From positions 1 to 56,168 of IMG/VR virus record IMGVR_UViG_3300032295_002548: a stretch of DNA of 56,168 bases. The stretch is one strand, 5' to 3'. The first letter of the stretch is position 1; every line of letters begins with the position of its first letter. Below are positions 4,454 through 30,440 of the stretch, piece by piece. A program made the translations under genes and the position numbers. Source of the DNA: a virus (taxonomy: Duplodnaviria > Caudoviricetes). The notes beneath the pieces were generated by a model. The model was not told the origin of the DNA and did not search any database. It worked only from the letters and a program-made list of their open reading frames with translations.

Positions 4454-5211
4454 GTGGCGTTCTGGTATTTGAAACGCACGACGACAATGCCCTGATAAAA
4501 CGCTCCGCCCGCACCGCCGTTGTGGAGAGCACCGCTATCACCGCCGGCACCACCACCGCCGCCACCGCCGCCACCGTAGCCAGTAGCCGCAGCACCCGGC
4601 GACCCGTCGCCCTGAGAGGATCCACCCAGACCACCGTTGCCCGCCCCAGTGCCGCCGGCGCCGCCGGGATTTGTACCGCTAACGCCTTGATTCTTACCAT
4701 CACCGCCGCCGCCACCCGAACTGCCGTACACCACGGACGTGCCGGTAATGCTCGACGCCGTGCCGGTCGTGCCGGGGGATCCCCCACCACCGCCGCCGGC
4801 GGTGTATGCTCCTGCAGCCGTGAACGAGCCCCCATTGTACGGAAGAACGCTGCTGGCGCTATTAGTCGTGCCAACCGTGACCGCGTAGTTCGTGTTAAGG
4901 ACGAACGAACTCATGGTCAAAGTCGCCGAAGAAATAACCCGGCCACCCGCACCACCTGAACCACCGCCGCCGCCGTTCGAGCTAATTTCAGGCGGATCCC
5001 CTTCCTCATTGGTACCGCCCTCCCCGCCCGTCTCGCCCGCGCCCACCACCAACACGTCCACGACAGCCGTGGGGATGCCGGCCAACGTCACCCGAAAATT
5101 GCCCCCACTGGTGAACGTGTGGATCTGATAGTCGCCACTGTACGTGATGGTCCCCCCGGTGGCATCGTTCTGCCGCCCGCCCGCGCCGAGGAGCATCTGC
5201 ATCAGGCTCAT
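4450..5211 (-). CDS. Glycine-rich domain fibre/tip protein (253 aa; start corrected to MSLMQMLLG)
   Basis: GGTITYSGDYQIHTFTSGG, VDVLVVGAG, poly-G loops and terminal GIVVVRF match the glycine-rich phage fibre domain; the ATG overlaps the TGA of the upstream gene. Confidence 0.75.
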   Translation of the reverse strand: MSLMQMLLGAGGRQNDATGGTITYSGDYQIHTFTSGGNFRVTLAGIPTAVVDVLVVGAGETGGEGGTNEEGDPPEISSNGGGGGSGGAGGRVISSATLTMSSFVLNTNYAVTVGTTNSASSVLPYNGGSFTAAGAYTAGGGGGGSPGTTGTASSITGTSVVYGSSGGGGGDGKNQGVSGTNPGGAGGTGAGNGGLGGSSQGDGSPGAAATGYGGGGGGGGGAGGDSGALHNGGAGGAFYQGIVVVRFKYQNAT

Positions 5212-21823: not shown

Positions 21824-22139
21824 GGAAGTGTTTGGCTGGTAGGCGGTTAGTGCGGCAGAAGTTGTAAAGTCGCACTGTAAAAAATCACATGGGGGGCTGG
21901 ATTGATAATATGCGCGCCCACCGCCGCTGGTGCGACCCCCTCCCCCCCTCTAAGTCGTTGATGGTGAGGGGGTTACGCACGTGTGATGCCACAATCCCTA
22001 TTATGTTAAGCAGCCTCGCATATGCCTGTGTGTGAAGGACTTACATAAAAACCGCGGTCGTCGCCGCGTCCCTCTGCCAGAGGTGGGGTGGCAGGTGCAA
22101 CCGATCGCCCTGCACCCCTTCATCACCTACCGGCCAGCC

Positions 22140-22253
22140 CTGCCACACTGCCACACTGCCGGGCTCCTTCAACCTCTTATCCTCCGGCCCTTCGCCTTCA
22201 TCGTCTCTTCCCCTACCTCTTGAAACCAGTGTGGTAGTGTGGCAGTGTGGCAG
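22140..22253. repeat. Inverted 8-bp iteron arrays; candidate replication origin
   Basis: CTG(CCACACTG)x2CC at 22140-22160 faces CAGTGTGG-TAGTGTGG-CAGTGTGG-CAG at 22227-22253 across a pyrimidine-rich spacer. Confidence 0.6.
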
Positions 22254-22299
22254 AAAGACGTTTTCCCCCTCTGAAGTGACACTTTTCGTCAAGTTGAGC

Positions 22300-22328
22300 T
22301 TGACCGGAGAACCTGTTTCGGCGATGAT
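22300..22328 (+). promoter_or_regulatory. Sigma70-like early promoter candidate
   Basis: TTGACC-17 nt-GATGAT; a further TTGACA at 22341. Confidence 0.5.
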
Positions 22329-22375
22329 GCTGGCCGTTCTTTGACATACCCACGACAAGCCCACCGGGCAGAACG

Positions 22376-22797
22376 GCGATGCCGGCGAAACGCCTGCCGC
22401 CCGACCCGGTGCCAGCTTGCGGTGGACCCCCGACCAGCCGGTGCCTTGAGGGCGACCGGCACGGATCGGCCGCCGGCGGCGCAGGGATGCGCCCCGGGCA
22501 AGACGGCCGGACGACCGGAGTGAGTAGCTCCGGAAATCACGTAGGGGGAGGACGGCGACGCGGTGCCAGCCTGCAGGGGGGTGCCGCTTCCGTTCCCGAT
22601 AAGGGGTGCCAGCCGCGAGAGCGACCGCGCCCCGTCCTGTGGTTCCTGCGATGCCGACGACACGTCTGCCGCAGGGAGGCCGAGAGAGGCGATGCCGACG
22701 ACACGTCTGCCGCCTGAGCGCCGACCATACCCGCGATGCCGACGACACGTCTGCCGTGGAGCCGACCGCCCTGCGATGCCGACGAAACGTCTGCCGC
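22376..22797 (+). repeat. 25-bp hairpin direct repeat: four clustered copies plus one isolated copy
   Basis: GCGATGCCGACGACACGTCTGCCGC consensus at 22648, 22689, 22733 and 22773; variant at 22376. Confidence 0.92.
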
Positions 22798-23006
22798 AAT
22801 GCGGAGAGGGGACGGGGGGCAGGGTAGCGGATTGGCCCCACGGTCCCCCTCGGAAGCGGGGAGCGGATGGAAGCGGGGAGTGCCCCGCGAGGGTGCAGGG
22901 TCGCCAGACGACGCTGCACCCGCCGCCTTGACCGTTGCGCCCTCGGCACCGAGGGACGCAGAACGACGCACCTTCCCCTGCCGGGCGTGAATGCCACACG
23001 CCCGGA

Positions 23007-23090
23007 GGAGTCAATGCAGCCATCGCCGCACCCTGCGGCGATGCCGGTTCCAAGCCCGGGCCGCCCTGTCGGGCGATGCAGAGGAACTCC
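23007..23090 (+). ncRNA. Twister self-cleaving ribozyme, type P1 with P3 and P5 stems
   Basis: P1 GGAGU/ACUCC; C^AA; P2 UGCA/UGCA; GC; P3 CAUCGCCGCA/UGCGGCGAUG; P4 CCGG-UUCCAAGC-CCGG; P5 CGCCC/GGGCG; GAGGA. Both pseudoknots (GC/GC, UCC/GGA) can form. Confidence 0.88.
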
Positions 23091-23112
23091 AACCCGCCAA
23101 CACGTCCCCACG

Positions 23113-23340
23113 ATGAACGCCACCCTGTCCCGCTCCGCCTCGTACCGCCTCGCCGTCTCCGCCAAGGCCGACCTCTGGCTCCCCGCCAACGGCGGCACCG
23201 AGGAGCCCTTCACGACCCGCAACGGGGTCCGCCTGCTCTACTGCTTCAACCCGCGCCTCGGCCGGCACGCTTACCTCGACCTCTCCTGCGACCACATCCT
23301 CGACGACGACGACGCCTTCCGCGCCCTCGGCCTGATCTAA
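23113..23340 (+). CDS. First early protein, hypothetical (75 aa; start corrected)
   Basis: MNATLSRS...W.PANGGTEEPF..R.G.RLLYCFNP..GRHAYLDL..D.IL; preceded by the leader motif. Confidence 0.75.
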   Translation: MNATLSRSASYRLAVSAKADLWLPANGGTEEPFTTRNGVRLLYCFNPRLGRHAYLDLSCDHILDDDDAFRALGLI

Positions 23341-23391
23341 CCCACCAACCCGTTTTCCCGTTAGTATCCAAACCAACAACACGTCATCCAC

Positions 23392-24438
23392 ATGTCCTCG
23401 TCCACTGCCTCGTACCTCGCCTCCCTCATCGCGGCCAAGCGCCGCGTCCTGTTCGTCGGCCCGCCGGGCTGCGCCAAGACCGCCCGCATCGCGGCGGCTG
23501 CCGCCGCCGCCGGTCACGACCTCGTCGTGATTCGCCTCTCGCTCGCCGAGCGGGTGGACCTCGGCGGCTGCTTGGTCCCCGACGCCGCCGGCGGCGTGAC
23601 CCGCGCCCTGCCGCTGGAGACCCTGCACCGCCTGCGCACCACCACCCGGCCGACCATCCTGCTGCTGGACGACCTCGGCCAAGCGCCCATCGACGTGCAG
23701 GCCAGCGCGATGGCGCTCTTCGACAGCGGCGCGCTGCCGGCTCACGTCCTGATCTGGGGCGCGACCAATCGGCCGGGCGACAAGTCCGGCGTGACCGGCC
23801 TGTGCGAACCGCTCCGGTCCCGGTATCACGTCGCCTTCAGCGTCGCCACGCCGGAGTCCGAGGAGAAGTCCGACGGCTCCACCTTCATCGCGCCGTGGGC
23901 CGACGAGGTCGCCGCGTGGTGCGACTGGGCCAGCGGCGAGGACTTCGCGCCGGAGATCATCGCGTGGCACCGCAGCACGACGGGCCGCACGCTGTACGCT
24001 TGGAAGCCGGTCAGCGACCCCGCGCTGCGGCTGCCCGACTTCCGCTCGTGGGAGACGGTCGGCCGCTTGTGGTCGGCCGGCCTGCGTGACCTGCGCACCG
24101 TCGGCGCGGCGATTGGCAAGCCTGCCGCCGCTGAGTTCCTCGCGTTCGCTGCGCTGGCCGATCAGCTGCCCACGCCGCAACAGGTGTGGCTCGATCCCGA
24201 CGGCGCGACGGTGCCGACCGATCCCGCTGCGCAGTACTTGATCGCGGCGATGCTCGGCCGCGCTGCGGAGCCGAAGTTCGCGACGCAGCTCGTCACCTAC
24301 TTCTCGCGGCTGCCGCGAGTGATGGGCGCTTACTGCGCCCGGGACGCTTACAAGCGGCTCGGCGCGAAGCTCGCCGGCAACGGCGCGTGGCAGCAGTGGT
24401 TCCTCGCGAACCGCCAGCTGTTCGAGACCGGCACCTAA
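23392..24438 (+). CDS. AAA+ ATPase (MoxR/dynein-related type)
   Basis: Walker A GPPGCAKT, Walker B LLLDD, sensor GATNRPGD, Arg finger PLRSR, RSWE motif. Confidence 0.88.
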   Translation: MSSSTASYLASLIAAKRRVLFVGPPGCAKTARIAAAAAAAGHDLVVIRLSLAERVDLGGCLVPDAAGGVTRALPLETLHRLRTTTRPTILLLDDLGQAPIDVQASAMALFDSGALPAHVLIWGATNRPGDKSGVTGLCEPLRSRYHVAFSVATPESEEKSDGSTFIAPWADEVAAWCDWASGEDFAPEIIAWHRSTTGRTLYAWKPVSDPALRLPDFRSWETVGRLWSAGLRDLRTVGAAIGKPAAAEFLAFAALADQLPTPQQVWLDPDGATVPTDPAAQYLIAAMLGRAAEPKFATQLVTYFSRLPRVMGAYCARDAYKRLGAKLAGNGAWQQWFLANRQLFETGT

Positions 24439-24440
24439 CA

Positions 24441-24492
24441 GGCCGAAACGCCCGCAAGGGCTTCGCACCGTCACGCGGTGCCTGATGAGGCC
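24441..24492 (+). ncRNA. Hammerhead ribozyme, type II
   Basis: GGCC-GAAA-C-GCCC(GCAA)GGGC-UUC^-GCACCG(UCACG)CGGUGC-CUGAUGA-GGCC; complete catalytic core with one C.U mismatch at the base of stem III. Confidence 0.85.
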
Positions 24493-24530
24493 AGATTGCC
24501 CCGTATCCAAACCAACAACACGTCCAACAG

Positions 24531-25343
24531 ATGAAGACCAAGACCACCACCACCGCTCCGTCCCTGATCGCCCGCAAGGCGGTCATCGCCTCGTTCACGT
24601 CGTCGCAGTGGCGCACCGTGCGCCGCCACGCCGCCGAGACCAAGGCCGAGAATGCCCGGCACGGCCTCACCGACGAGGCCCGCGTCGATGTCAAAGTGTG
24701 CAACGACCCCGCGCTCGAAGAGGCGGCGCGGATCATCACCGCAGCCCGCGCCGATCATTACCGGCTCACCGTGCCGGCCGCCGACCGCGGGATGAGGCTG
24801 CTCCCCGGCGCTCGCCAGCTGGAGCACGCCGACACCCTGCAGGCGCACGGCGTGAAGTTCCAAGCCGCTGTCGCGCAGTTCCTCGCTCGGTACGAGACGC
24901 TCCGCGCCGACGCTCCGGCCCGGCTCAACGGCCTGTACATCGCGAGCCACTGGCCCGACCTCGACCGCGTGCGCGGTTCGTTCGCGCTCTCGTGCCGCTA
25001 CCTCCCGGTGCCGGCGCTCGGTCAATGGGACGAGTGGATCGCCGAGTCGGCGAGCAACGCGACCGAGGAGATTCGCACGCGGATCGGCGAGGCGCTGCGC
25101 GCCGCTGCCGAAAAGCTGGCCGATCCCAAGGCGATCTTCCGCGACTCCCTCGTGGGCAACCTCGTCGATATCCTCAACCTCGCCGACGATCTCAACATCG
25201 CCGGCGACCCGGCGGTCGCCGACCTCGTCGCGCAAGCCAAGGCGCTCGCCAACGTCGAGCCCGACCAGCTGCGCGAGGACAAGACGCTGCGCGCCAACAC
25301 CGCCGCCCGGGCGGCCGACCTGTGCTCCCTGTTCAGCCTGTAA
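24531..25343 (+). CDS. DUF3150-like helical protein of the AAA+/vWA module
   Basis: 270 aa; HY.LTVP..DRG.RLLP, F..RY, A..RLNGLY....WP, IFRDSLV.N motifs; lies between the ATPase and vWA genes. Confidence 0.65.
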   Translation: MKTKTTTTAPSLIARKAVIASFTSSQWRTVRRHAAETKAENARHGLTDEARVDVKVCNDPALEEAARIITAARADHYRLTVPAADRGMRLLPGARQLEHADTLQAHGVKFQAAVAQFLARYETLRADAPARLNGLYIASHWPDLDRVRGSFALSCRYLPVPALGQWDEWIAESASNATEEIRTRIGEALRAAAEKLADPKAIFRDSLVGNLVDILNLADDLNIAGDPAVADLVAQAKALANVEPDQLREDKTLRANTAARAADLCSLFSL

Positions 25344-25368
25344 TCCAAACCATCAACACGTTTCCCGT

Positions 25369-26586
25369 ATGAACCCGATCAACAAAGCAACCCTGCTCCG
25401 CATCGACCGCGCCCGCTGGTGGGCGCTGTCCTCTCCCGCCGCCGTGTTTTACGGCAGCCTCGCCACCCACCTCGTCGATGTCATCGACGAGTCCATCCCG
25501 ACCGCCGCGACCGACGGCAAGCGCATCCTCTGGAACCCGACGTTCGTCGCCGGGCTCACCGACGAGGAGGTGCGGTTCGTCCTGCTCCACGAGACGTTGC
25601 ACTGCGCACACGCCCACTTCGACCGGCTCCCGCTCAATGAGCAGGGCAACAAGGCGGGCGACTACGCCATCAACCGCGTGCTGCAGGGCATCGCCGGCAT
25701 CGCGATGCCCAAGGACGGCCTGCTCGACCCGCGCTTCGACAACCTCGCCGAGGAGGAAATCCTCGCCGCCCTCGGTCGCGAGGCGCAGCCGCAGCCCGGC
25801 AACGGCAAGCCCTCGCCCGGTGCGGGTGGTGGCAAGCCGCAGCCCCAGCCCGGCAAGGGCCAGCCTGACGACGGACAAACTGGTTCGCCCGATCCCGGCG
25901 GCTGCGGTGGCTTCGTCGCCCCCGATAAGACGCCCAACCCGCAGGGCAAGACGCTCGCCGAGAAGTGGGAGCAGGCCGTGATCCAAGCCGAGTTCACGGC
26001 GAAGACCCTCGGCAAGGGCAACGCGCCGGCCGACCTCAAGCGCATCCTCGACCGCATCCGCGCCACCGACGTGGACTGGAAGCGCGAGGTCGCCGACTTC
26101 GCTCGGACCGCCATCAGCGCCAGCGCCGACTGGTCCCGCTCGACCCGCCGGATGGCGACCGCGCCGGTGATCTACCCGCGCCGCAAGCGCGACCGCGTGG
26201 GCTGCCTGCTCGTGGTGCGCGACACGTCGGGCAGCATCGACAACAAGCTGTGCGCCGAGTTCTCGGCGCAGGTCACGCAGGTCATCGCCGACCTGCAGTG
26301 CCGGGCCATCGTGCTCGACGTGGACACCCGGCTGCACGCCGAGTACCGCCTTGAGCCGGGCGACGAGTGCCCCAGCAACGCACGCGGCGGTGGCGGCACC
26401 GCCTTCACCCCGGCGTTCGACCGGCTGGCCGAGTTGCAGGACGAGGGCGAGGACATCGCCGGCGTGCTGTACCTGACCGACCTCGACGGTGAGTTCCCCG
26501 ACAACCCGCCCGACGTGCCCACCCTGTGGGTGGCGTACGGCACGACGCGCGCCGCCCCGTTCGGCCGCACGCTGCACGTGAAGTGA
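25369..26586 (+). CDS. DUF2201-type putative metallopeptidase plus vWA domain protein
   Basis: TAATDG, HETLH (HExxH), NKAGDYAIN, G/P/Q linker, MIDAS DTSGS, GGGGTAF, YLTDLDG. Confidence 0.88.
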   Translation: MNPINKATLLRIDRARWWALSSPAAVFYGSLATHLVDVIDESIPTAATDGKRILWNPTFVAGLTDEEVRFVLLHETLHCAHAHFDRLPLNEQGNKAGDYAINRVLQGIAGIAMPKDGLLDPRFDNLAEEEILAALGREAQPQPGNGKPSPGAGGGKPQPQPGKGQPDDGQTGSPDPGGCGGFVAPDKTPNPQGKTLAEKWEQAVIQAEFTAKTLGKGNAPADLKRILDRIRATDVDWKREVADFARTAISASADWSRSTRRMATAPVIYPRRKRDRVGCLLVVRDTSGSIDNKLCAEFSAQVTQVIADLQCRAIVLDVDTRLHAEYRLEPGDECPSNARGGGGTAFTPAFDRLAELQDEGEDIAGVLYLTDLDGEFPDNPPDVPTLWVAYGTTRAAPFGRTLHVK

Positions 26587-26635
26587 GGTTTCCCACCCTG
26601 CCCATCCGCCCCGTGCGGGTGGGCAGTAGGGAGCC
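26587..26635 (+). other. Long intergenic stem-loop (processing or stability element)
   Basis: CTGCCCATCCGC/GCGGGTGGGCAG 12-bp stem plus a lower GGTTTCCC/GGGAGCC stem; no U tract. Confidence 0.55.
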
Positions 26636-26671
26636 CTGACTCCATCAACAACACAACAACACGTATCCACA

Positions 26672-26785
26672 ATGAAACGCTCCGACTACATCACCACCGC
26701 CCTCTGGCTGCTCGCCTGTGCGGTGTTCGCCATCTGGTCCGCCGCCCTCGTCATCAACTCCCTGATCAACTCGTTCTCCCGATGA
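26672..26785 (+). CDS. 37-aa single-TM peptide
   Basis: Not in the ORF track. MKRSDYITTALWLLACAVFAIWSAALVINSLINSFSR; leader motif upstream and ATGA coupling downstream. Confidence 0.7.
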   Translation: MKRSDYITTALWLLACAVFAIWSAALVINSLINSFSR

Positions 26786-27459
26786 GCACCACCCCATTCG
26801 ACCTCGACGCCCACCTCGCCGCCGCCGATCCAGTCCACGCCCGCGAAGCCCGCTTCGGCTGGCACGAGAATGCCCTGCGCATCCTGCTGCCCCTCGGCTG
26901 GACGGTCGAAGACCTCGCCGAGCAAAGCCGTCCTCGCTGCGCGGCGTGCCCGCTCCTCCGCGTGACGCGCCGCAAGCGTAACGACCACGATCTACGTGCC
27001 AAGTCTACCCGGCTGCGGTTCTGGGCGGATGCCGAGGGGCGGAAGCTCCATTACAGCGACGCAGGCATCGCCGAGACGTGGGTGGAGCTGGTCATCGACG
27101 TGACTTCACCCCGCGCTCAATGGTCCGCGAATCGCTGGGTCACCCACGCCACGTTCGGCTTGGCCGAGATCATCGCCAAGGCGCAGGCCATCAAGGAGCG
27201 GGAGGAGCGGGAGGAGCGGGAGTCCGAGGCTTACCTCGCGTCCCTGCTGGTCGGCACCGGCTACACCAAGGAGGACATCGCCAATCAATTCGGCGGGTTC
27301 CACGCACGCGTCGGCACCGATGATCACGGCAAGCAATTCTTCCGTCTCAACGTGGGCAACAAGTTTCTCAGCCCGCGTTCCCGCTGGTCGAACGAGGAGA
27401 AGACGCGGAAGGTGTGCAACCTGCTCACGTTCCTACAGCAAGAAGGATGGAACGAGTGA
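26782..27459 (+). CDS. Hypothetical early protein (225 aa)
   Basis: Coupled ORF; no recognisable motif. Confidence 0.65.
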   Translation: MSTTPFDLDAHLAAADPVHAREARFGWHENALRILLPLGWTVEDLAEQSRPRCAACPLLRVTRRKRNDHDLRAKSTRLRFWADAEGRKLHYSDAGIAETWVELVIDVTSPRAQWSANRWVTHATFGLAEIIAKAQAIKEREEREERESEAYLASLLVGTGYTKEDIANQFGGFHARVGTDDHGKQFFRLNVGNKFLSPRSRWSNEEKTRKVCNLLTFLQQEGWNE

Positions 27460-27827
27460 AGTTCCAGCTGCTGCAAATCGGGATGACCTTCAACCGGGAA
27501 CAGAACCGGCACGAGTTTACCACGATCACGACCACGCCGTTGCGAAACCTCGATGATCCTAACCGCCCCAAGGTGTCCGAGGTGTCGATGATTTTCGATA
27601 CCTCCAGCCCGATCCCGCAGCTGGTCTACGCCAGTCACTTGTTCAGGCTCGACCCCACGGATCCCGACGGGGTGATGGGGATACCGTGGGATCTGGAAGC
27701 GTTCCGAGTGCGGCTGCCGCATTCGTTTTGGACGGACTTGAAAGGCAACCTGCGCGACGCCGGCTTCGCCATCGTGATGGAAGCACCCGACAACGTGTTG
27801 CCGCATCAAACTACGGCGCAGGATTGA
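27456..27827 (+). CDS. Hypothetical early protein (~123 aa)
   Basis: GTGA overlap with the previous stop; exact start uncertain. Confidence 0.55.
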   Translation: MKFQLLQIGMTFNREQNRHEFTTITTTPLRNLDDPNRPKVSEVSMIFDTSSPIPQLVYASHLFRLDPTDPDGVMGIPWDLEAFRVRLPHSFWTDLKGNLRDAGFAIVMEAPDNVLPHQTTAQD

Positions 27828-27857
27828 CATCCACCGTTCGTCCGTACCTCCCTTGGT

Positions 27858-27929
27858 CTGGTCTCAGCGGAGTGGATAACCGCTGACGTGTTGTAACCCT
27901 CGCCATTCTTCGGAGTGGCGAGGGTTTTC
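27858..27929 (+). ncRNA. Candidate antisense sRNA (hairpin, single-stranded seed, terminator)
   Basis: TTGACA at 27824; UCAGCGG(AGUGGAUAA)CCGCUGA hairpin; seed UGACGUGUUGUA complementary to the early leaders; 5' end is estimated. Confidence 0.6.
27895..27928 (+). terminator. Rho-independent terminator ending the early operon/sRNA
   Basis: AACCCUCGCCAUUC-UUCG-GAGUGGCGAGGGUUUU. Confidence 0.85.
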
Positions 27930-28007
27930 GCTTTACACGTGGCCGCTTGAGAGGGAGACGAGGGAATCCATCCTCGCCGTGTGGCGCGGTAAATCTACAA
28001 CACGTTT

Positions 28008-30440
28008 ATGAAAACCCGGTACTTCGGGGGCACTCCCGACAACCTCGGCGTCGTCCGTGCGCTGCCCGCCGAGACGTTCACCGACCTCGTATCCACCCAC
28101 CTGAGACAGCCCGTGTCCCTTGGCGTGACCAAGGCGCAGCTGCTGGCGATGCCTCCCGCCGAGGCGACCAAGGCCAAGGCCACCGACTACCTTGTCCCCG
28201 CCACGTTCAAGACCGACACGTCGCAGCGCCGCACTGAGCTGGCCGTCGTCGCGAACCTCATCTTCATCGACATCGACGACGCCATCGACGCCCGTCGTCT
28301 GCTCGCCACTGGCTTCGGCTCCCTGCTGGGCCGACTCGACTCGGTCGTCTACCACACTGCCCGCTCCACGCCGGCCGCGCCCCGGCTGCGGGTGGTGGTG
28401 TCCGCCGAGGAGGTGCCCATCGCCCGTTACGCCGAGGCCGTGCGCCTGATCGCCGCCCTGCTGGGGATGGAGGACGTATCACGGGAGTCGCTCGTCCCGG
28501 TGCAGCCGATGTTCCTGCCAACCAGTTTTGCCGATGATACCACCGACCCGGTGGTGCATTGCTCGACCAAGGGGGAAGCGTTCGTCCTGCCTCTCGCCTC
28601 CACCCTGTCGGAACTCCCCGCTGGCGAGGCCGACGCGGGTGACGTGTCCCCGCTGGAGAACCTGCGCCCTCGGATGGAGGGCGTGAACCCCGAGGATATC
28701 CGCCCCGCCCTGCAGGTCATCGACCCCGATTGTGCGATGAAGCGGTGGGTGGAGATCGGGATGGCGCTGAAGCACCAGTTCGGGGACGAGGGCTACGCCC
28801 TGTGGGACGACTGGTCCGCCCGGGGCAAGGCCAAGTACCCCGGCTCCGATGCAACCCGCCGCCGGTGGGATTCGTTCGCCGGCCAGACTTCCAACCGCGT
28901 GCCCGTCACGCTGCGCACCGTCCTCCGCATTGCCGAGGAGTCAGGATGGGACAACAAGTTGGCCGGTGAGAACGTCTACTCCCGCACCGTGGACTGGATC
29001 ACGTCGTCAACCCGTTCGACGGAAGAGCTGCTCGACCACGCGGCCGGCCGCATCTCGGCGATCTCCCCGCTGATCGGTCCCCTCAAGCAAGCTGCGCTGG
29101 TGGGCACGCTCGCCCGCACCCTGAAGAACCGCGGCATCCAAGGCGTGACCGCCACCAGCCTGACGCAGGTGGTGAAGGACAACATCAGCGAGAGTACCAA
29201 GCCAACGCAGCCTCCGACGTGGGCATCTGGGGTGGTGTTCGTCACAGCGAGCAACCTGTTTTACCGTTACGTGGACAACCGCAAGCTGAAGCCGGAGGTG
29301 GTGGACCTGATCTATCGTTCACCCGATCCAGAGAAGCGGCCCCGTGAGTGGCTGATCCACGACGCCAACATCAAGGTGGTGGAGAACCTGCGCTACGACC
29401 CCGAGACCAAGGCCCGGGTGGTGATGTACGATGGCGTGCCCTTCTGCAACACGTACCGCCCGACGTACCCAGCGCCCGACTACGGCCAGCTGCAGGAGGT
29501 GCTCGACTTCTTCAGCGCGCACGCCGACCACGTGTTCACCTCGCAATGGAGCCGCACGATGTTCGACTTCGGCGCGTATCTGGTGCAGCACCCGGGCAAG
29601 AAGATCAGGTGGGCACCGCTGGTGCAGAGCGGGGTGGGTGCGGGCAAGGGGTTGTGGGCTGGCCTGCTCACCCGGGCGCTGGGCTTCAGCAACGTGCAGC
29701 GTTTGTCTGCTGAACACGTTCTTGAGGCGACGTACAACTCGTGGGCCAGCGGCTATCAACTCACGGTGATGGACGAGGTGTACAACGTGGGGGCCAACAG
29801 CCACCGCACGATGAGCAAGCTGAAGCCCAGCATCTCGGACGACTTCGTGTCGGTGCGTTCATTGTACGAACCTGTTCAGACGGTGCCGAACATAATGAAC
29901 TTCCTGATGTTCACGAACTACCACAACTCGCTGGCCGTACACGACAGCGACCGCCGGTACTTCGTGATCAAGTCCCCGCTTCAAACCAAGGACGACATCC
30001 TCGCCCTTGGTGGGCCGGCCTACTTCGAGCACGCGTACAAGCTGTTGTCCTCTCACGCCGCCGGGATCCGCGCCCTGTTCGAGAGCTGGCCCATCTCCAA
30101 GGACTTCCCCGCTGATGGGCGTGCCCCCATCACGCCGTTCCTCGGTGAGCTGGCTGCGGCCACAGCCTCCCCGCTGGCAGCCGCCGTGCAGGACGCGCTC
30201 GACGACCGGCCGCACGCCCTGCTGCAGCCCGACCTCCTGTCGCTGCCCGTGCTGCGCGCTCATCTCCCCGCTGATAGGTTGTCCCACTTCACCGATCAGG
30301 GTCTGGCCTCGGTGCTACGGGAGAAGGGGTTCGTCTCCGCTGGTCGGCACTCGTTCGACGGGGTGCGTCACGCCCTGTGGGTGCGGGGATTCAAGGGTGA
30401 TCCGGTGGCTGAGGCGAATGCCCGGCGTGAAGTTTTGTGA
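28008..30440 (+). CDS. Primase-helicase (AEP prim-pol, PriCT-2, SF3/DUF5906-type helicase)
   Basis: IFIDID, YHT..S....PRLRVV, WVEIGMALK..G..LWDDWS, Walker A GVGAGKG, Walker B VMDE, FTNY, DRRY. Confidence 0.9.
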   Translation: MKTRYFGGTPDNLGVVRALPAETFTDLVSTHLRQPVSLGVTKAQLLAMPPAEATKAKATDYLVPATFKTDTSQRRTELAVVANLIFIDIDDAIDARRLLATGFGSLLGRLDSVVYHTARSTPAAPRLRVVVSAEEVPIARYAEAVRLIAALLGMEDVSRESLVPVQPMFLPTSFADDTTDPVVHCSTKGEAFVLPLASTLSELPAGEADAGDVSPLENLRPRMEGVNPEDIRPALQVIDPDCAMKRWVEIGMALKHQFGDEGYALWDDWSARGKAKYPGSDATRRRWDSFAGQTSNRVPVTLRTVLRIAEESGWDNKLAGENVYSRTVDWITSSTRSTEELLDHAAGRISAISPLIGPLKQAALVGTLARTLKNRGIQGVTATSLTQVVKDNISESTKPTQPPTWASGVVFVTASNLFYRYVDNRKLKPEVVDLIYRSPDPEKRPREWLIHDANIKVVENLRYDPETKARVVMYDGVPFCNTYRPTYPAPDYGQLQEVLDFFSAHADHVFTSQWSRTMFDFGAYLVQHPGKKIRWAPLVQSGVGAGKGLWAGLLTRALGFSNVQRLSAEHVLEATYNSWASGYQLTVMDEVYNVGANSHRTMSKLKPSISDDFVSVRSLYEPVQTVPNIMNFLMFTNYHNSLAVHDSDRRYFVIKSPLQTKDDILALGGPAYFEHAYKLLSSHAAGIRALFESWPISKDFPADGRAPITPFLGELAAATASPLAAAVQDALDDRPHALLQPDLLSLPVLRAHLPADRLSHFTDQGLASVLREKGFVSAGRHSFDGVRHALWVRGFKGDPVAEANARREVL

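Follow-up and report, generated by a model that had tools for sequence, protein, structure and literature searches.

A small number of temperate coliphage systems, such as P1 c4 and P4 CI, are known in which a phage-encoded RNA controls the phage's own programme by base-pairing. The c4 RNA of P1 and P7, ~77 nt long, pairs through its exposed loops with short sites that lie farther along its own operon, at a ribosome-binding region downstream. The alpha gene of P4 encodes a primase. Coordinated shut-off of several early mRNAs is also achieved by a protein repressor, RegA of T4, which occludes their start regions, and the temperate Cluster A mycobacteriophages carry stoperators, DNA sites that are distributed genome-wide and are bound by the immunity repressor. 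The c4 RNA is processed by RNase P (PMC5499578). The CI RNA of P4 is described as short and untranslated, and it has the orientation of its targets, seqA and seqC, short complementary sites found on either side of it within one transcription unit; it governs the replication genes (PMC4825925). It is cut from a longer transcript and acts by premature transcription termination in the lysogen. Two further kinds of site appear in a mycobacteriophage study (PMC3203893): the SAS of Cluster K, an asymmetric motif a few bases 5' of the ATGs of non-structural genes, for which an RNA or protein partner encoded by host or phage was suggested, and the stoperators of Cluster A, numerous short, asymmetric sites that follow the direction of transcription and occupy short intergenic gaps. 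The function of the SAS was still called unverified in 2025 (PMC12699233).

The locus described here occupies positions 27793 to 27937, on the + strand, of the window, the whole 56,168-nt stretch of phage DNA that was analysed. An initial annotation had described TTGACA, a 7-bp hairpin, a seed and a UUCG terminator at 27824-27929, and all four are present in the sequence. TTGACA (27824-27829), the candidate -35 box of a small RNA, overlaps the end of the ORF at 27414-27827, whose stop codon is its TGA. It has no recognisable -10; no sigma-70-type promoter was called at 27824 because no -10 was found, and the host promoter consensus may differ. Hairpin H2 (27864-27886) consists of 7 pairs, UCAGCGG/CCGCUGA, closing the loop AGUGGAUAA at 27871-27879. 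It is followed by the anti-leader seed ACGUGUUGUA at 27886-27895 (the letters at these positions are ACGTGTTGTA) and then by an intrinsic terminator at 27897-27929, with a 12-bp GC-rich stem (27897-27908 and 27913-27924), a UUCG loop and the U-tract UUUUCGCUUU. This terminator, for which the program counts 14 pairs, is the strongest terminator-like site between 22000 and 31000. Directly 3' of it lies TTTACA (27932-27937), the candidate -35 box of a primase transcript and a putative promoter element. A further antisense copy, ACGTGTTG at 27793-27800, is found within the final codons (D-N-V-L-P) of the ORF at 27414-27827, 23 nt 5' of TTGACA. Two other interpretations of the region were rejected. 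An antisense 31-aa ORF at 27811-27906 is shifted in frame by a 1-nt indel between relatives L095 and L098, and for the UGGAUA loop as a mimic of the 16S tail, ATCCA fell outside the 15 most enriched 4-mers listed before starts.

The seed had been proposed to match sites at 23376, 24515, 27996, 23098, 26656 and 25354, and it is indeed perfectly complementary, over 8-11 nt, to six start-proximal leaders in the same orientation, five located 5' and one 3' of the element. The downstream site, TACAACACGT at 27996-28005 (+), is part of the primase leader and lies 2 nt 5' of the ATG at 28008. In the five upstream leaders, also on the + strand, a CAACACGT core lies 7 nt 5' of the start codon. These are CAACACGT(C) at 23098-23105, recorded as the seed-complementary site CAACACGTC at 23098, before a 75-aa ORF (ATG 23113; seed energy -14.2 kcal/mol); the 11-nt ACAACACGTCA at 23376-23386, before an AAA ATPase gene (ATG 23392; -17.5 kcal/mol, the best among 51 start regions); ACAACACGTC at 24515-24524 (ATG 24531; -15.9 kcal/mol); CAACACGT at 25354-25361, before an HNH-endonuclease-like gene (ATG 25369; -12.0 kcal/mol); and ACAACACGT at 26656-26664, before a 37-aa ORF (ATG 26672; -13.3 kcal/mol). 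The 8-mer core is identical among the five early leaders and the flanking bases vary. ATCCAC, which the annotation had correctly placed directly 5' of the ATGs at 23392 and 26672, is complementary to GUGGAU of the H2 loop. The regions upstream of starts are poor in G (119 of 720 bases), and no Shine-Dalgarno (SD) consensus was seen in them.

The reading that we favour, at a little less than an even chance, is that 27859-27929 specifies an anti-leader RNA that would pair with and occlude these SD-less, CA-rich start leaders. Such an RNA might exist as a discrete ~70-nt transcript starting ~35 nt 3' of TTGACA, as the 3' end of the mRNA of the early operon, which stops at this same terminator, or as both. 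A search for RNA sequencing runs covering 26600-29000 listed none. By base-pairing with start regions that are otherwise open, namely the primase leader abutting its AUG and, in five early genes in a row, the CAACACGU core located 7 nt 5' of the AUG, it would block 30S loading, and the outcome would be feedback shut-off of the early genes together with limited primase synthesis.

Such an RNA would resemble known systems in part. Short complementary sites of 8-11 nt in the same unit and orientation are a trait of the C4 class, and the proposed bipartite pairing of loop and linker, GUGGAU plus GACGUGUUGU against 23376-23391, is C4-like in spirit. However, the context of c4 is an antirepressor, whereas the element described here lies in a primase module and, as far as can be told, is ended by a terminator rather than processed by RNase P. 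The Rfam C4 model RF01695 gave 0 matches against the whole record (E <= 10; 15 scored candidates), and an Rfam covariance-model scan of 22000-28100 (E <= 5) yielded no match at the element and neither C4 nor isrK. P4 CI shares with the element the short same-orientation sites up- and downstream and the control of genes that include a primase; it differs in that the targets here abut start codons, and no Rfam similarity was found at E <= 5. Since the targets adjoin start codons, translational occlusion is suggested.

The CAACACGT motif occurs 19 times in the window, whereas dinucleotide shuffles contain it 2.12 times on average and never more than 6 times (0/100 reached 19), and it is the most over-represented 8-mer there (19 vs 2.68 expected from an order-3 Markov model). 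Of these copies, ten fall inside genes, which exceeds synonymous resampling (10 vs 2.9; maximum 8 in 300 resamplings). As extra targets these copies were ruled out, given that all ten share one codon frame, xxC-AAC-ACG-Txx (Asn-Thr), and that the relative G001 has 7 CAACACGT copies though its leaders carry another motif. They represent a codon-context background, and the true signal therefore comprises the six leader copies and the two antisense copies, at 27793 and 27886. Within the window, intergenic copies are confined to 23098-28005.

Folding predictions are compatible with pairing at the seed. The initial annotation had called UGACGUGUUGUA largely exposed, and the seed is predicted to be unpaired in the isolated 72-nt RNA, with probabilities mostly of 0.7-0.99, but the first three bases of that stretch belong to the hairpin stem. 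The primase leader is likewise predicted to be accessible and mostly unpaired in a model of the 5'UTR. When start regions were ranked with a 15-nt seed, the six leaders took the top 6 places among 51, but energies for the whole RNA were no better than those of shuffles (z from -1.09 to +0.97 for its whole 5' part paired to the primase UTR against shuffled targets). Across the genome, 107 of 11226 windows had a seed energy at least as good as that of the third-best leader (-15 kcal/mol or better), and whole-genome duplexfold with a 16-nt seed did not single out the leaders, GC-rich coding windows ranking above them. The leaders were thus singled out only by seed-only ranking restricted to start regions.

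Such unremarkable naive duplex statistics would fit an ordinary 3'UTR, terminator and next promoter with no regulatory pairing, in which GU-rich linkers meet CA-rich leaders that were spread by duplication and recombination. The leaders of the phage group share a common frame, CAAC-N3-T-N7-ATG, so the complementarity is partly a matter of GU-rich versus CA-rich composition; with CAAC at -15 generic in the group, any GUUG linker finds partners. Comparisons among relatives bear on this explanation from both sides.

The comparative set consisted of loci from a related-loci search and represents three to four independent lineages. We refer to the phage described here as W and to its close variants as W-type; the lineage of L095 and L098 has 59% primase identity. 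Primases P0002-P0014 (Logan/ENA) are 60-71% identical, and their contigs lie outside the set. A single-protein scan of viral contigs and megablast against INPHARED returned no relatives. Pattern scans of viral contigs for the terminator/TTTACA junction and for the loop together with the seed, with tblastn and genomic context as filters, gave chance hits among the matches listed, except for G001/G002.

The 59%-identity relatives share the hairpin-seed-terminator architecture. TTGACA is present in 11/11 of the relatives' rows examined, at a distance from CTTTACA of 114-115 nt in W- and L095-type, 118 nt in L088 and 122-131 nt in G1-type loci, and CTTTAC(A/T) lies directly 3' of the terminator in every lineage seen. 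Two of the 7 pairs of H2 are changed on both sides around an invariant UGGAUA loop (alignment A3), as are 3/12 pairs of the terminator, where 100% of cells are paired. Overall, 96% of 174 stem cells are paired, versus 33-48% with partners slid, and the covariation score was matched by 0/500 shuffles. The element is a conserved structured unit, with compensatory changes in hairpin and terminator. In W- and L095-type loci it also has the general traits of a terminator-ended sRNA, an intrinsic terminator and a conserved, predicted single-stranded seed facing conserved starts. That loop and seed form conserved islands flanked by covarying stems argues against the absence of regulatory pairing.

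Co-variation of seed and leader, named as a check in the initial annotation, was seen at a single position. All 6/6 distinct sequences share the seed core GUGUUGU and the primase-leader core ACAACAC. The single variable seed:leader pair is C:G in 3, U:G in 2 and U:A in 1 but never C:A; by itself this position is weak, with one A-target and a chance of 0.5 that it faces a U-seed. Complementarity between seed and primase leader in L095/L098 reaches 14 nt counting G.U and runs through the AUG, as read from the sequences and in agreement with the fold. L091 and L098 have an antisense copy, ATGTGTTG, whose difference from the sense sites CAACACGT is exactly one that G.U wobble tolerates, and antisense copies that match their leaders occur in two other lineages (see below). 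On the other hand, variant L088 breaks the pairing twice, the final C of its primase leader facing a seed A and its early leader CAACACAT facing a seed C. The upstream antisense copy (27793 in W) is missing from L088 and L094, whose upstream gene differs. The notion of one RNA for six sites stands for the closest variants of W, to which the six-target set is limited, but not farther afield: the seed of the L095/L098 lineage matches just two leaders, those of the primase and the ATPase, and in the 50%-identity lineages, which retain the structure, the match to the primase leader is 6 nt or none was found.

Among the targets, the complement in the primase leader is conserved most widely. This agrees with a structure that acts in cis only, whereby on read-through transcripts the seed would hide the primase start ~100 nt downstream, and only transcripts from the TTTACA promoter would be translated. 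MFE folds of read-through RNA point the same way: 5/6 sequences form a helix of the linker with the primase region, seed:leader in W, L091, L095 and L098 and linker:UTR in G1, and L088 folds otherwise. However, the terminator is very strong (12-14 bp, GC-rich), and read-through should therefore be rare. A cis-only structure also leaves unexplained the five upstream leader copies of W, the ATPase-leader match of L098 and the anti-leader of L092-type loci, and we regard it as distinctly unlikely. For the anti-leader RNA itself, we somewhat favour a role in trans over pairing in cis within read-through transcripts.

G1-type and L092-type loci have other leaders, and each carries a matching antisense copy of its own within ~50-135 nt 5' of the same terminator. 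In the G1-type, ATAGGTTG, located 16-24 nt 5' of TTGACA (16 nt in G001), is the antisense of the leader core CAACCTAT, and the linker AGGUUGAG, 1 nt 5' of the terminator, matches CUCAACCU, which is present twice in the primase 5'UTR. In the L092-type, GTTGTTGTGTT lies 48 nt 5' of the terminator and is perfectly complementary over 11 nt to AACACAACAAC, a sequence that adjoins two early ATGs; these targets lie 2.4 kb upstream. The L092 copy encodes V-V-V-F in rare codons (GTT in 17/289 Val and TTT in 13/141 Phe codons; product ~2e-4). Among the 50%-identity lineages, TTGACA, two hairpins, a GU-rich linker and the terminator are all still present in L099/L100/L101 and L031, with a match between linker and primase leader of only 6 nt or none found; in L031 no conserved seed complementary to target starts was found, and no convincing further targets of loop or linker were found in L099/L100/L031.

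Retention of the structure without primase complementarity in these distant relatives is what an ordinary 3'UTR and terminator would predict. Against it, four lineages that differ in sequence all show perfect matches of 8-12 nt (14 nt with G.U in L095/L098), always within ~135 nt of the same terminator, and the L092 copy is kept at the cost of rare codons. We consider it improbable that no regulatory pairing occurs. From these alignments it seems general in the group that each lineage has an antisense counterpart of its own leader within the final 50-135 nt 5' of the terminator.

All copies of the motif change together by lineage, from CAACACGT to CAACCTAT, as would also be seen with altered specificity of a protein. 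Under this explanation, which takes in the orientation-independent DNA operator that the initial annotation had named as a refuter, a lineage-specific DNA- or RNA-binding protein reads CAACACGT, the sense and inverted copies are its binding sites, and the hairpin and terminator do no more than close the early operon. Preservation of the exact 8-mer core amid variable flanks is consistent with such sites; a motif-specific protein that binds double-stranded DNA would account equally well for inverted copies, and those found 16-23 nt 5' of TTGACA in W and the G1-type are placed as activator or repressor sites might be. Cluster A and Cluster K mycobacteriophages provide known examples of asymmetric sites that lie near gene starts and are oriented with transcription (PMC3203893).

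The motif is SAS-like in that it is asymmetric, lies near the ATG in one orientation (+) within the early/replication block, five copies at 7 nt and one at 2 nt, and has two inverted copies. The SAS, however, is a 13-bp sequence, GGGATAGGAGCCC, with a Shine-Dalgarno core, whereas the motif here is CA-rich and without SD; it is an analogue of the SAS, not a member. In Anaya (Cluster K) an inverted SAS lies in a non-coding gap, where it overlaps a TTGACC-17-TATCCC box with no adjoining terminator. In contrast to stoperators, the sites here are confined to one early operon and keep a constant distance to the ATG, and no repressor candidate was found among ten ORFs scanned. Pfam detected no DNA-binding domain in the 9 uncharacterised of these ten early-region ORFs; the tenth is a single-stranded-DNA-binding protein. 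Four other observations speak against a protein site: the constant 7-nt gap to the ATG suggests a role at the level of RNA or translation, the antisense copy falls within a linker that is predicted to be single-stranded and is flanked by two covarying hairpins, the L091/L098 copy ATGTGTTG departs from CAACACGT just as wobble allows, and the spacing of the inverted copy to TTGACA varies by lineage (23 nt vs 16 or 24 nt). A protein reading the motif is unlikely in our estimation, though the most probable of the alternatives to the anti-leader RNA. If a protein does so, the locus would still constitute a compact regulon.

The coordinated early shut-off proposed here resembles that by T4 RegA, with the difference that the proposed effector is RNA. 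A role of this RNA in immunity would be purely inferential. The initial annotation saw no integrase, and a search of the whole record for PF00589 likewise found none, which argues against a classical lysogenic context without settling the matter. MAG matches hint at Verrucomicrobiota as hosts. Extended to the phage group, the model would be that early genes are translated from SD-less, CA-rich, start-associated leaders, which are silenced in each lineage by an RNA anti-leader carried in the last ~50-135 nt of the early transcript and elaborated in W into a ~70-nt hairpin-seed-terminator sRNA, an all-RNA counterpart of T4 RegA that gates primase. We offer this wider model tentatively, as a possibility that is more doubtful than likely.

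To our knowledge, little is understood of how gene expression is timed in phages whose hosts dispense with Shine-Dalgarno pairing. If the anti-leader reading is true, RNA alone would provide early shut-off and a primase gate in an apparently integrase-less phage, and conserved start-associated leader motifs would acquire a function. It would also supply a searchable rule, that a leader core is mirrored near the operon terminator even at a cost in rare codons. If the reading holds for the group as a whole, it would offer a testable mechanism for the SAS of Cluster K and their lone inverted copy.

The 56,168-bp window is a complete IMG/VR phage record, for which megablast found no close relative in INPHARED. 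Its minus strand carries structural genes (terminase, major head and baseplate-like proteins), and on the plus strand a gene block (about 17.8-37.4 kb) encodes an AAA ATPase, an HNH-like protein, a primase-helicase (28008-30440), an exonuclease, an SSB, a DNA polymerase and a helicase. No tRNA genes and no Rfam families at gathering score were found in the window, and a PF00589 search of the record was negative, in agreement with the initial annotation, which saw no integrase. In the 20 nt upstream of 36 ATG starts, C and A predominate and G is scarce (119 of 720 bases), with no Shine-Dalgarno consensus seen among them. Two ribozyme-like matches lie on the plus strand near the early operon. 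A sub-threshold match to the type-P1 twister (RF03160; 23008-23089; 41.9 bits where the gathering score is 67.2, E = 7.7e-7) spans the full model and directly precedes the first early ORF, and a weak Hammerhead_II match (RF02276; 24441-24496; 25 bits against 37, E = 0.094) falls after the ATPase stop codon, ahead of the leader that follows.

Every component of the candidate antisense element annotated upstream of the primase gene was found in place on the plus strand: TTGACA at 27824, a 7-bp hairpin (H2) with loop AGUGGAUAA at 27864-27886, the GU-rich seed ACGTGTTGTA at 27886-27895, and a terminator with a 12-14-bp GC-rich stem and UUCG loop, ending at about 27929, which is the top terminator-like site within 22-31 kb. 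Fold prediction leaves the seed unpaired in the isolated 72-nt RNA. No -10 follows the TTGACA box, and the promoter scan calls nothing there. Other intergenic TTGAC(A/G/T) boxes in the window (17490, 17520, 15738, 8316 and 30450) lie 34-40 nt upstream of start codons, or 34-45 nt once the primase upstream regions of relatives are counted, and they too lack a TATAAT-like -10. This arrangement suggests that mRNAs in this host may be nearly leaderless and -35-driven, from an unusual host promoter. Because the other boxes sit 34-40 nt before starts, the 5' end of the RNA would lie near 27859.

The leader 8-mer CAACACGT occurs 19 times in the window, against about 2 expected. Six sense copies precede plus-strand genes, exactly 7 nt before the ATGs at 23113, 23392, 24531, 25369 and 26672, and 2 nt before the primase ATG at 28008. 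Three are antisense to local transcription, at 5050 (within a late gene), 27793 (the 3'-terminal codons of the preceding ORF) and 27886 (the seed). The inverted copies alone are equally compatible with one main rival to RNA pairing, recognition of the 8-mer in DNA by a lineage-specific protein. A further ten copies lie in genes on the sense strand (879-55401), all framed xxC-AAC-ACG-Txx and encoding Asn-Thr with Tyr, Phe or Ser as the next residue. They exceed synonymous-codon resampling (10 versus 2.9 +/- 1.6), likely a codon-context effect; since the relative G001 has 7 in-gene copies yet uses a different core in its own leaders, we set them aside as background. A second string, C-AAC-CTG-TT (AACCTGTT / CAACCTGT), is also enriched in the window (8 copies versus 0.94 expected, mostly transcription-oriented) and in the relatives G001 and G002, with several copies at conserved coding positions.

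When start regions were ranked by duplex energy with the seed only, the six leaders took the top 6 of 51 places (-17.5 to -12.0 kcal/mol). The ranking is not specific genome-wide, however: 107 of 11,226 genome windows score -15 kcal/mol or better with the seed, and longer queries gave energies no better than shuffled targets. Coincidence of composition is another main rival. Leaders across the group share the CA-rich frame CAAC-N3-T-N7-ATG with varying cores (ACG, CTA, CCG, CTG, TCG), and part of the seed match is therefore compositional. The proposal that one RNA serves six starts holds for the window and its close variants (W-type) but not beyond them. In the relative L098 only the ATPase and primase leaders match; its ATPase leader, AACAACACAT, is perfect over 10 nt against its own seed, and its remaining early leaders are merely CA-rich. 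Separately, three repeat copies at 22641-22755 (+), within the extended non-coding region that precedes the early operon, hold GACGACACGTC, conceivably a decoy or sponge, which could pair with the seed over 10 bp (one G.U), with a predicted duplex energy of -18.7 kcal/mol for the 16-nt seed.

Primase homologues are numerous in metagenomes, and related loci were drawn from IMG/VR, JGI metagenomes and MAGs. By primase identity these comprise W-type variants L088, L091 and L094 (99-100%); L095 and L098, with L118 the same as L098 (59%); G1-type G001 (L002), G002 (L003), L108 and L109 (62-68%); L092, L124, L126 and L351 (58-67%), with a small basic ORF between terminator and primase; and L099, L100, L101 and L031 (49-50%). 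A very basic ORF of about 45 aa (consensus like MTPSQLAAALGRLSKGKKKTL...RKRRW) lies between promoter and primase in L004-L013, L045, L049, L090, L092 and L096; the window and the L095-type, G1-type, L099-type and L031 loci are without it and have instead a long untranslated leader and structured element. Four of six MAG contigs with primase relatives (L350-L355) are labeled Verrucomicrobiota (Opitutaceae, Akkermansia, Prosthecobacter, Verrucomicrobiales), a weak hint at the hosts of the wider group, given that binning of phage contigs is unreliable.

W-type and L095-type loci share the layout TTGACA, 114-118 nt, CTTTACA, 71-72 nt, ATG. In an alignment of six distinct sequences of the element, 96% of 174 cells are paired under the named structure, against 33-48% with partners slid; 2 of 7 H2 pairs and 3 of 12 terminator pairs are altered on both sides, and the loop UGGAUA is invariant. 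The covariation score was reached by 0 of 500 shuffles, a count that is not a probability and reflects effectively two clades only. Searching with a covariance model of the element gave matches solely upstream of primase genes, with weak ones (19-32 bits) in G1-type, L092-type, L107 and L099-type loci. Inspected by eye, L099, L100, L101 and L031 likewise have TTGACA, a pair of hairpins and a terminator, and their GU-rich linkers read AGUUGUU or CGUGUU.

All six sequences keep GUGUUGU in the seed and ACAACAC in the primase leader unchanged. A single pair varies: it is C:G in the window, L088 and L094, U:G in L091 and L098, and U:A in L095, states that trace the classical compensatory path via a wobble. 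With one A-target only, this covariation is not significant alone. In L088, moreover, the pairing with the primase leader is mismatched at its end, and one leader reads CAACACAT, facing a seed C. In L095 and L098, read by eye, complementarity reaches 14 nt and extends through the AUG. The primase leader is predicted to be mostly open in the model 5'UTR. The seed:leader helix also appears in MFE folds of the read-through RNA of the window, L091, L095 and L098, as the remaining main rival, a structure acting only in cis on read-through transcripts, would have it; because the terminator is strong, most seed-bearing transcripts would end at about 27929.

Other lineages mirror their own leaders. 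G1-type leaders read CAACCTAT-N7-ATG, and their exact antisense, ATAGGTTG, is found 16-24 nt ahead of TTGACA, where an unrelated small ORF stops; the G1-type linker AGGUUGAG, 1 nt upstream of the terminator, is the perfect complement of CUCAACCU, present twice in the primase 5'UTR. L092-type phages have neither TTGACA nor H2, and carry, 48 nt upstream of the same terminator, GTTGTTGTGTT, perfectly complementary over 11 nt to AACACAACAAC, which adjoins the ATG of two early genes. GTTGTTGTGTT encodes V-V-V-F using GTT, GTT and TTT; at the L092 locus GTT makes up 5.9% of Val codons and TTT 9.2% of Phe codons (four-codon product about 2e-4), and these rare codons point to selection on nucleotides, not protein. 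The L099-type linker matches its own primase leader over 6 nt only, and no linker match to the primase leader was found in L031. In all, four lineages, of which three have independent sequences, carry a mirror of their own leader no more than about 135 nt upstream of a single conserved terminator; by hand estimate, the chance of an 8-mer match in 150 nt is about 0.002 per lineage.

The P1 and P7 c4 RNAs act through bipartite loop pairing, and in this respect they are the nearest known system; a covariance-model search did not place the element in the Rfam C4 family. In layout the nearest is the P4 CI RNA, which, according to PMC4825925, is encoded in the orientation of its targets, is flanked by them on either side and controls replication genes; c4 is cited in PMC5499578. 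The leaders resemble the Start-Associated Sequences (SAS) of Cluster K mycobacteriophages, for which PMC3203893 and PMC12699233 describe one inverted copy per genome and a function not established. The inverted SAS of Anaya (34871-34883 of L356; 59870-59882 of the record) lies within the 385-nt non-coding gap gp96-gp97, after a terminator. The parallel is only suggestive, because no terminator follows this copy and it overlaps a TTGACC-17-TATCCC box, seen by eye and not called by the promoter scan.

The best-supported model, to which we give slightly less than an even chance, is that an anti-leader RNA would base-pair with open, SD-less start regions and occlude them. The free 3'-terminal RNA may be an sRNA initiated from TTGACA, or else the early mRNA may supply it as its 3' end; the L092-type phages favor the latter over a discrete sRNA. 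The interpretation of the element as a self-regulating antisense RNA of the phage, coupled to SAS-like leaders, is partly supported.
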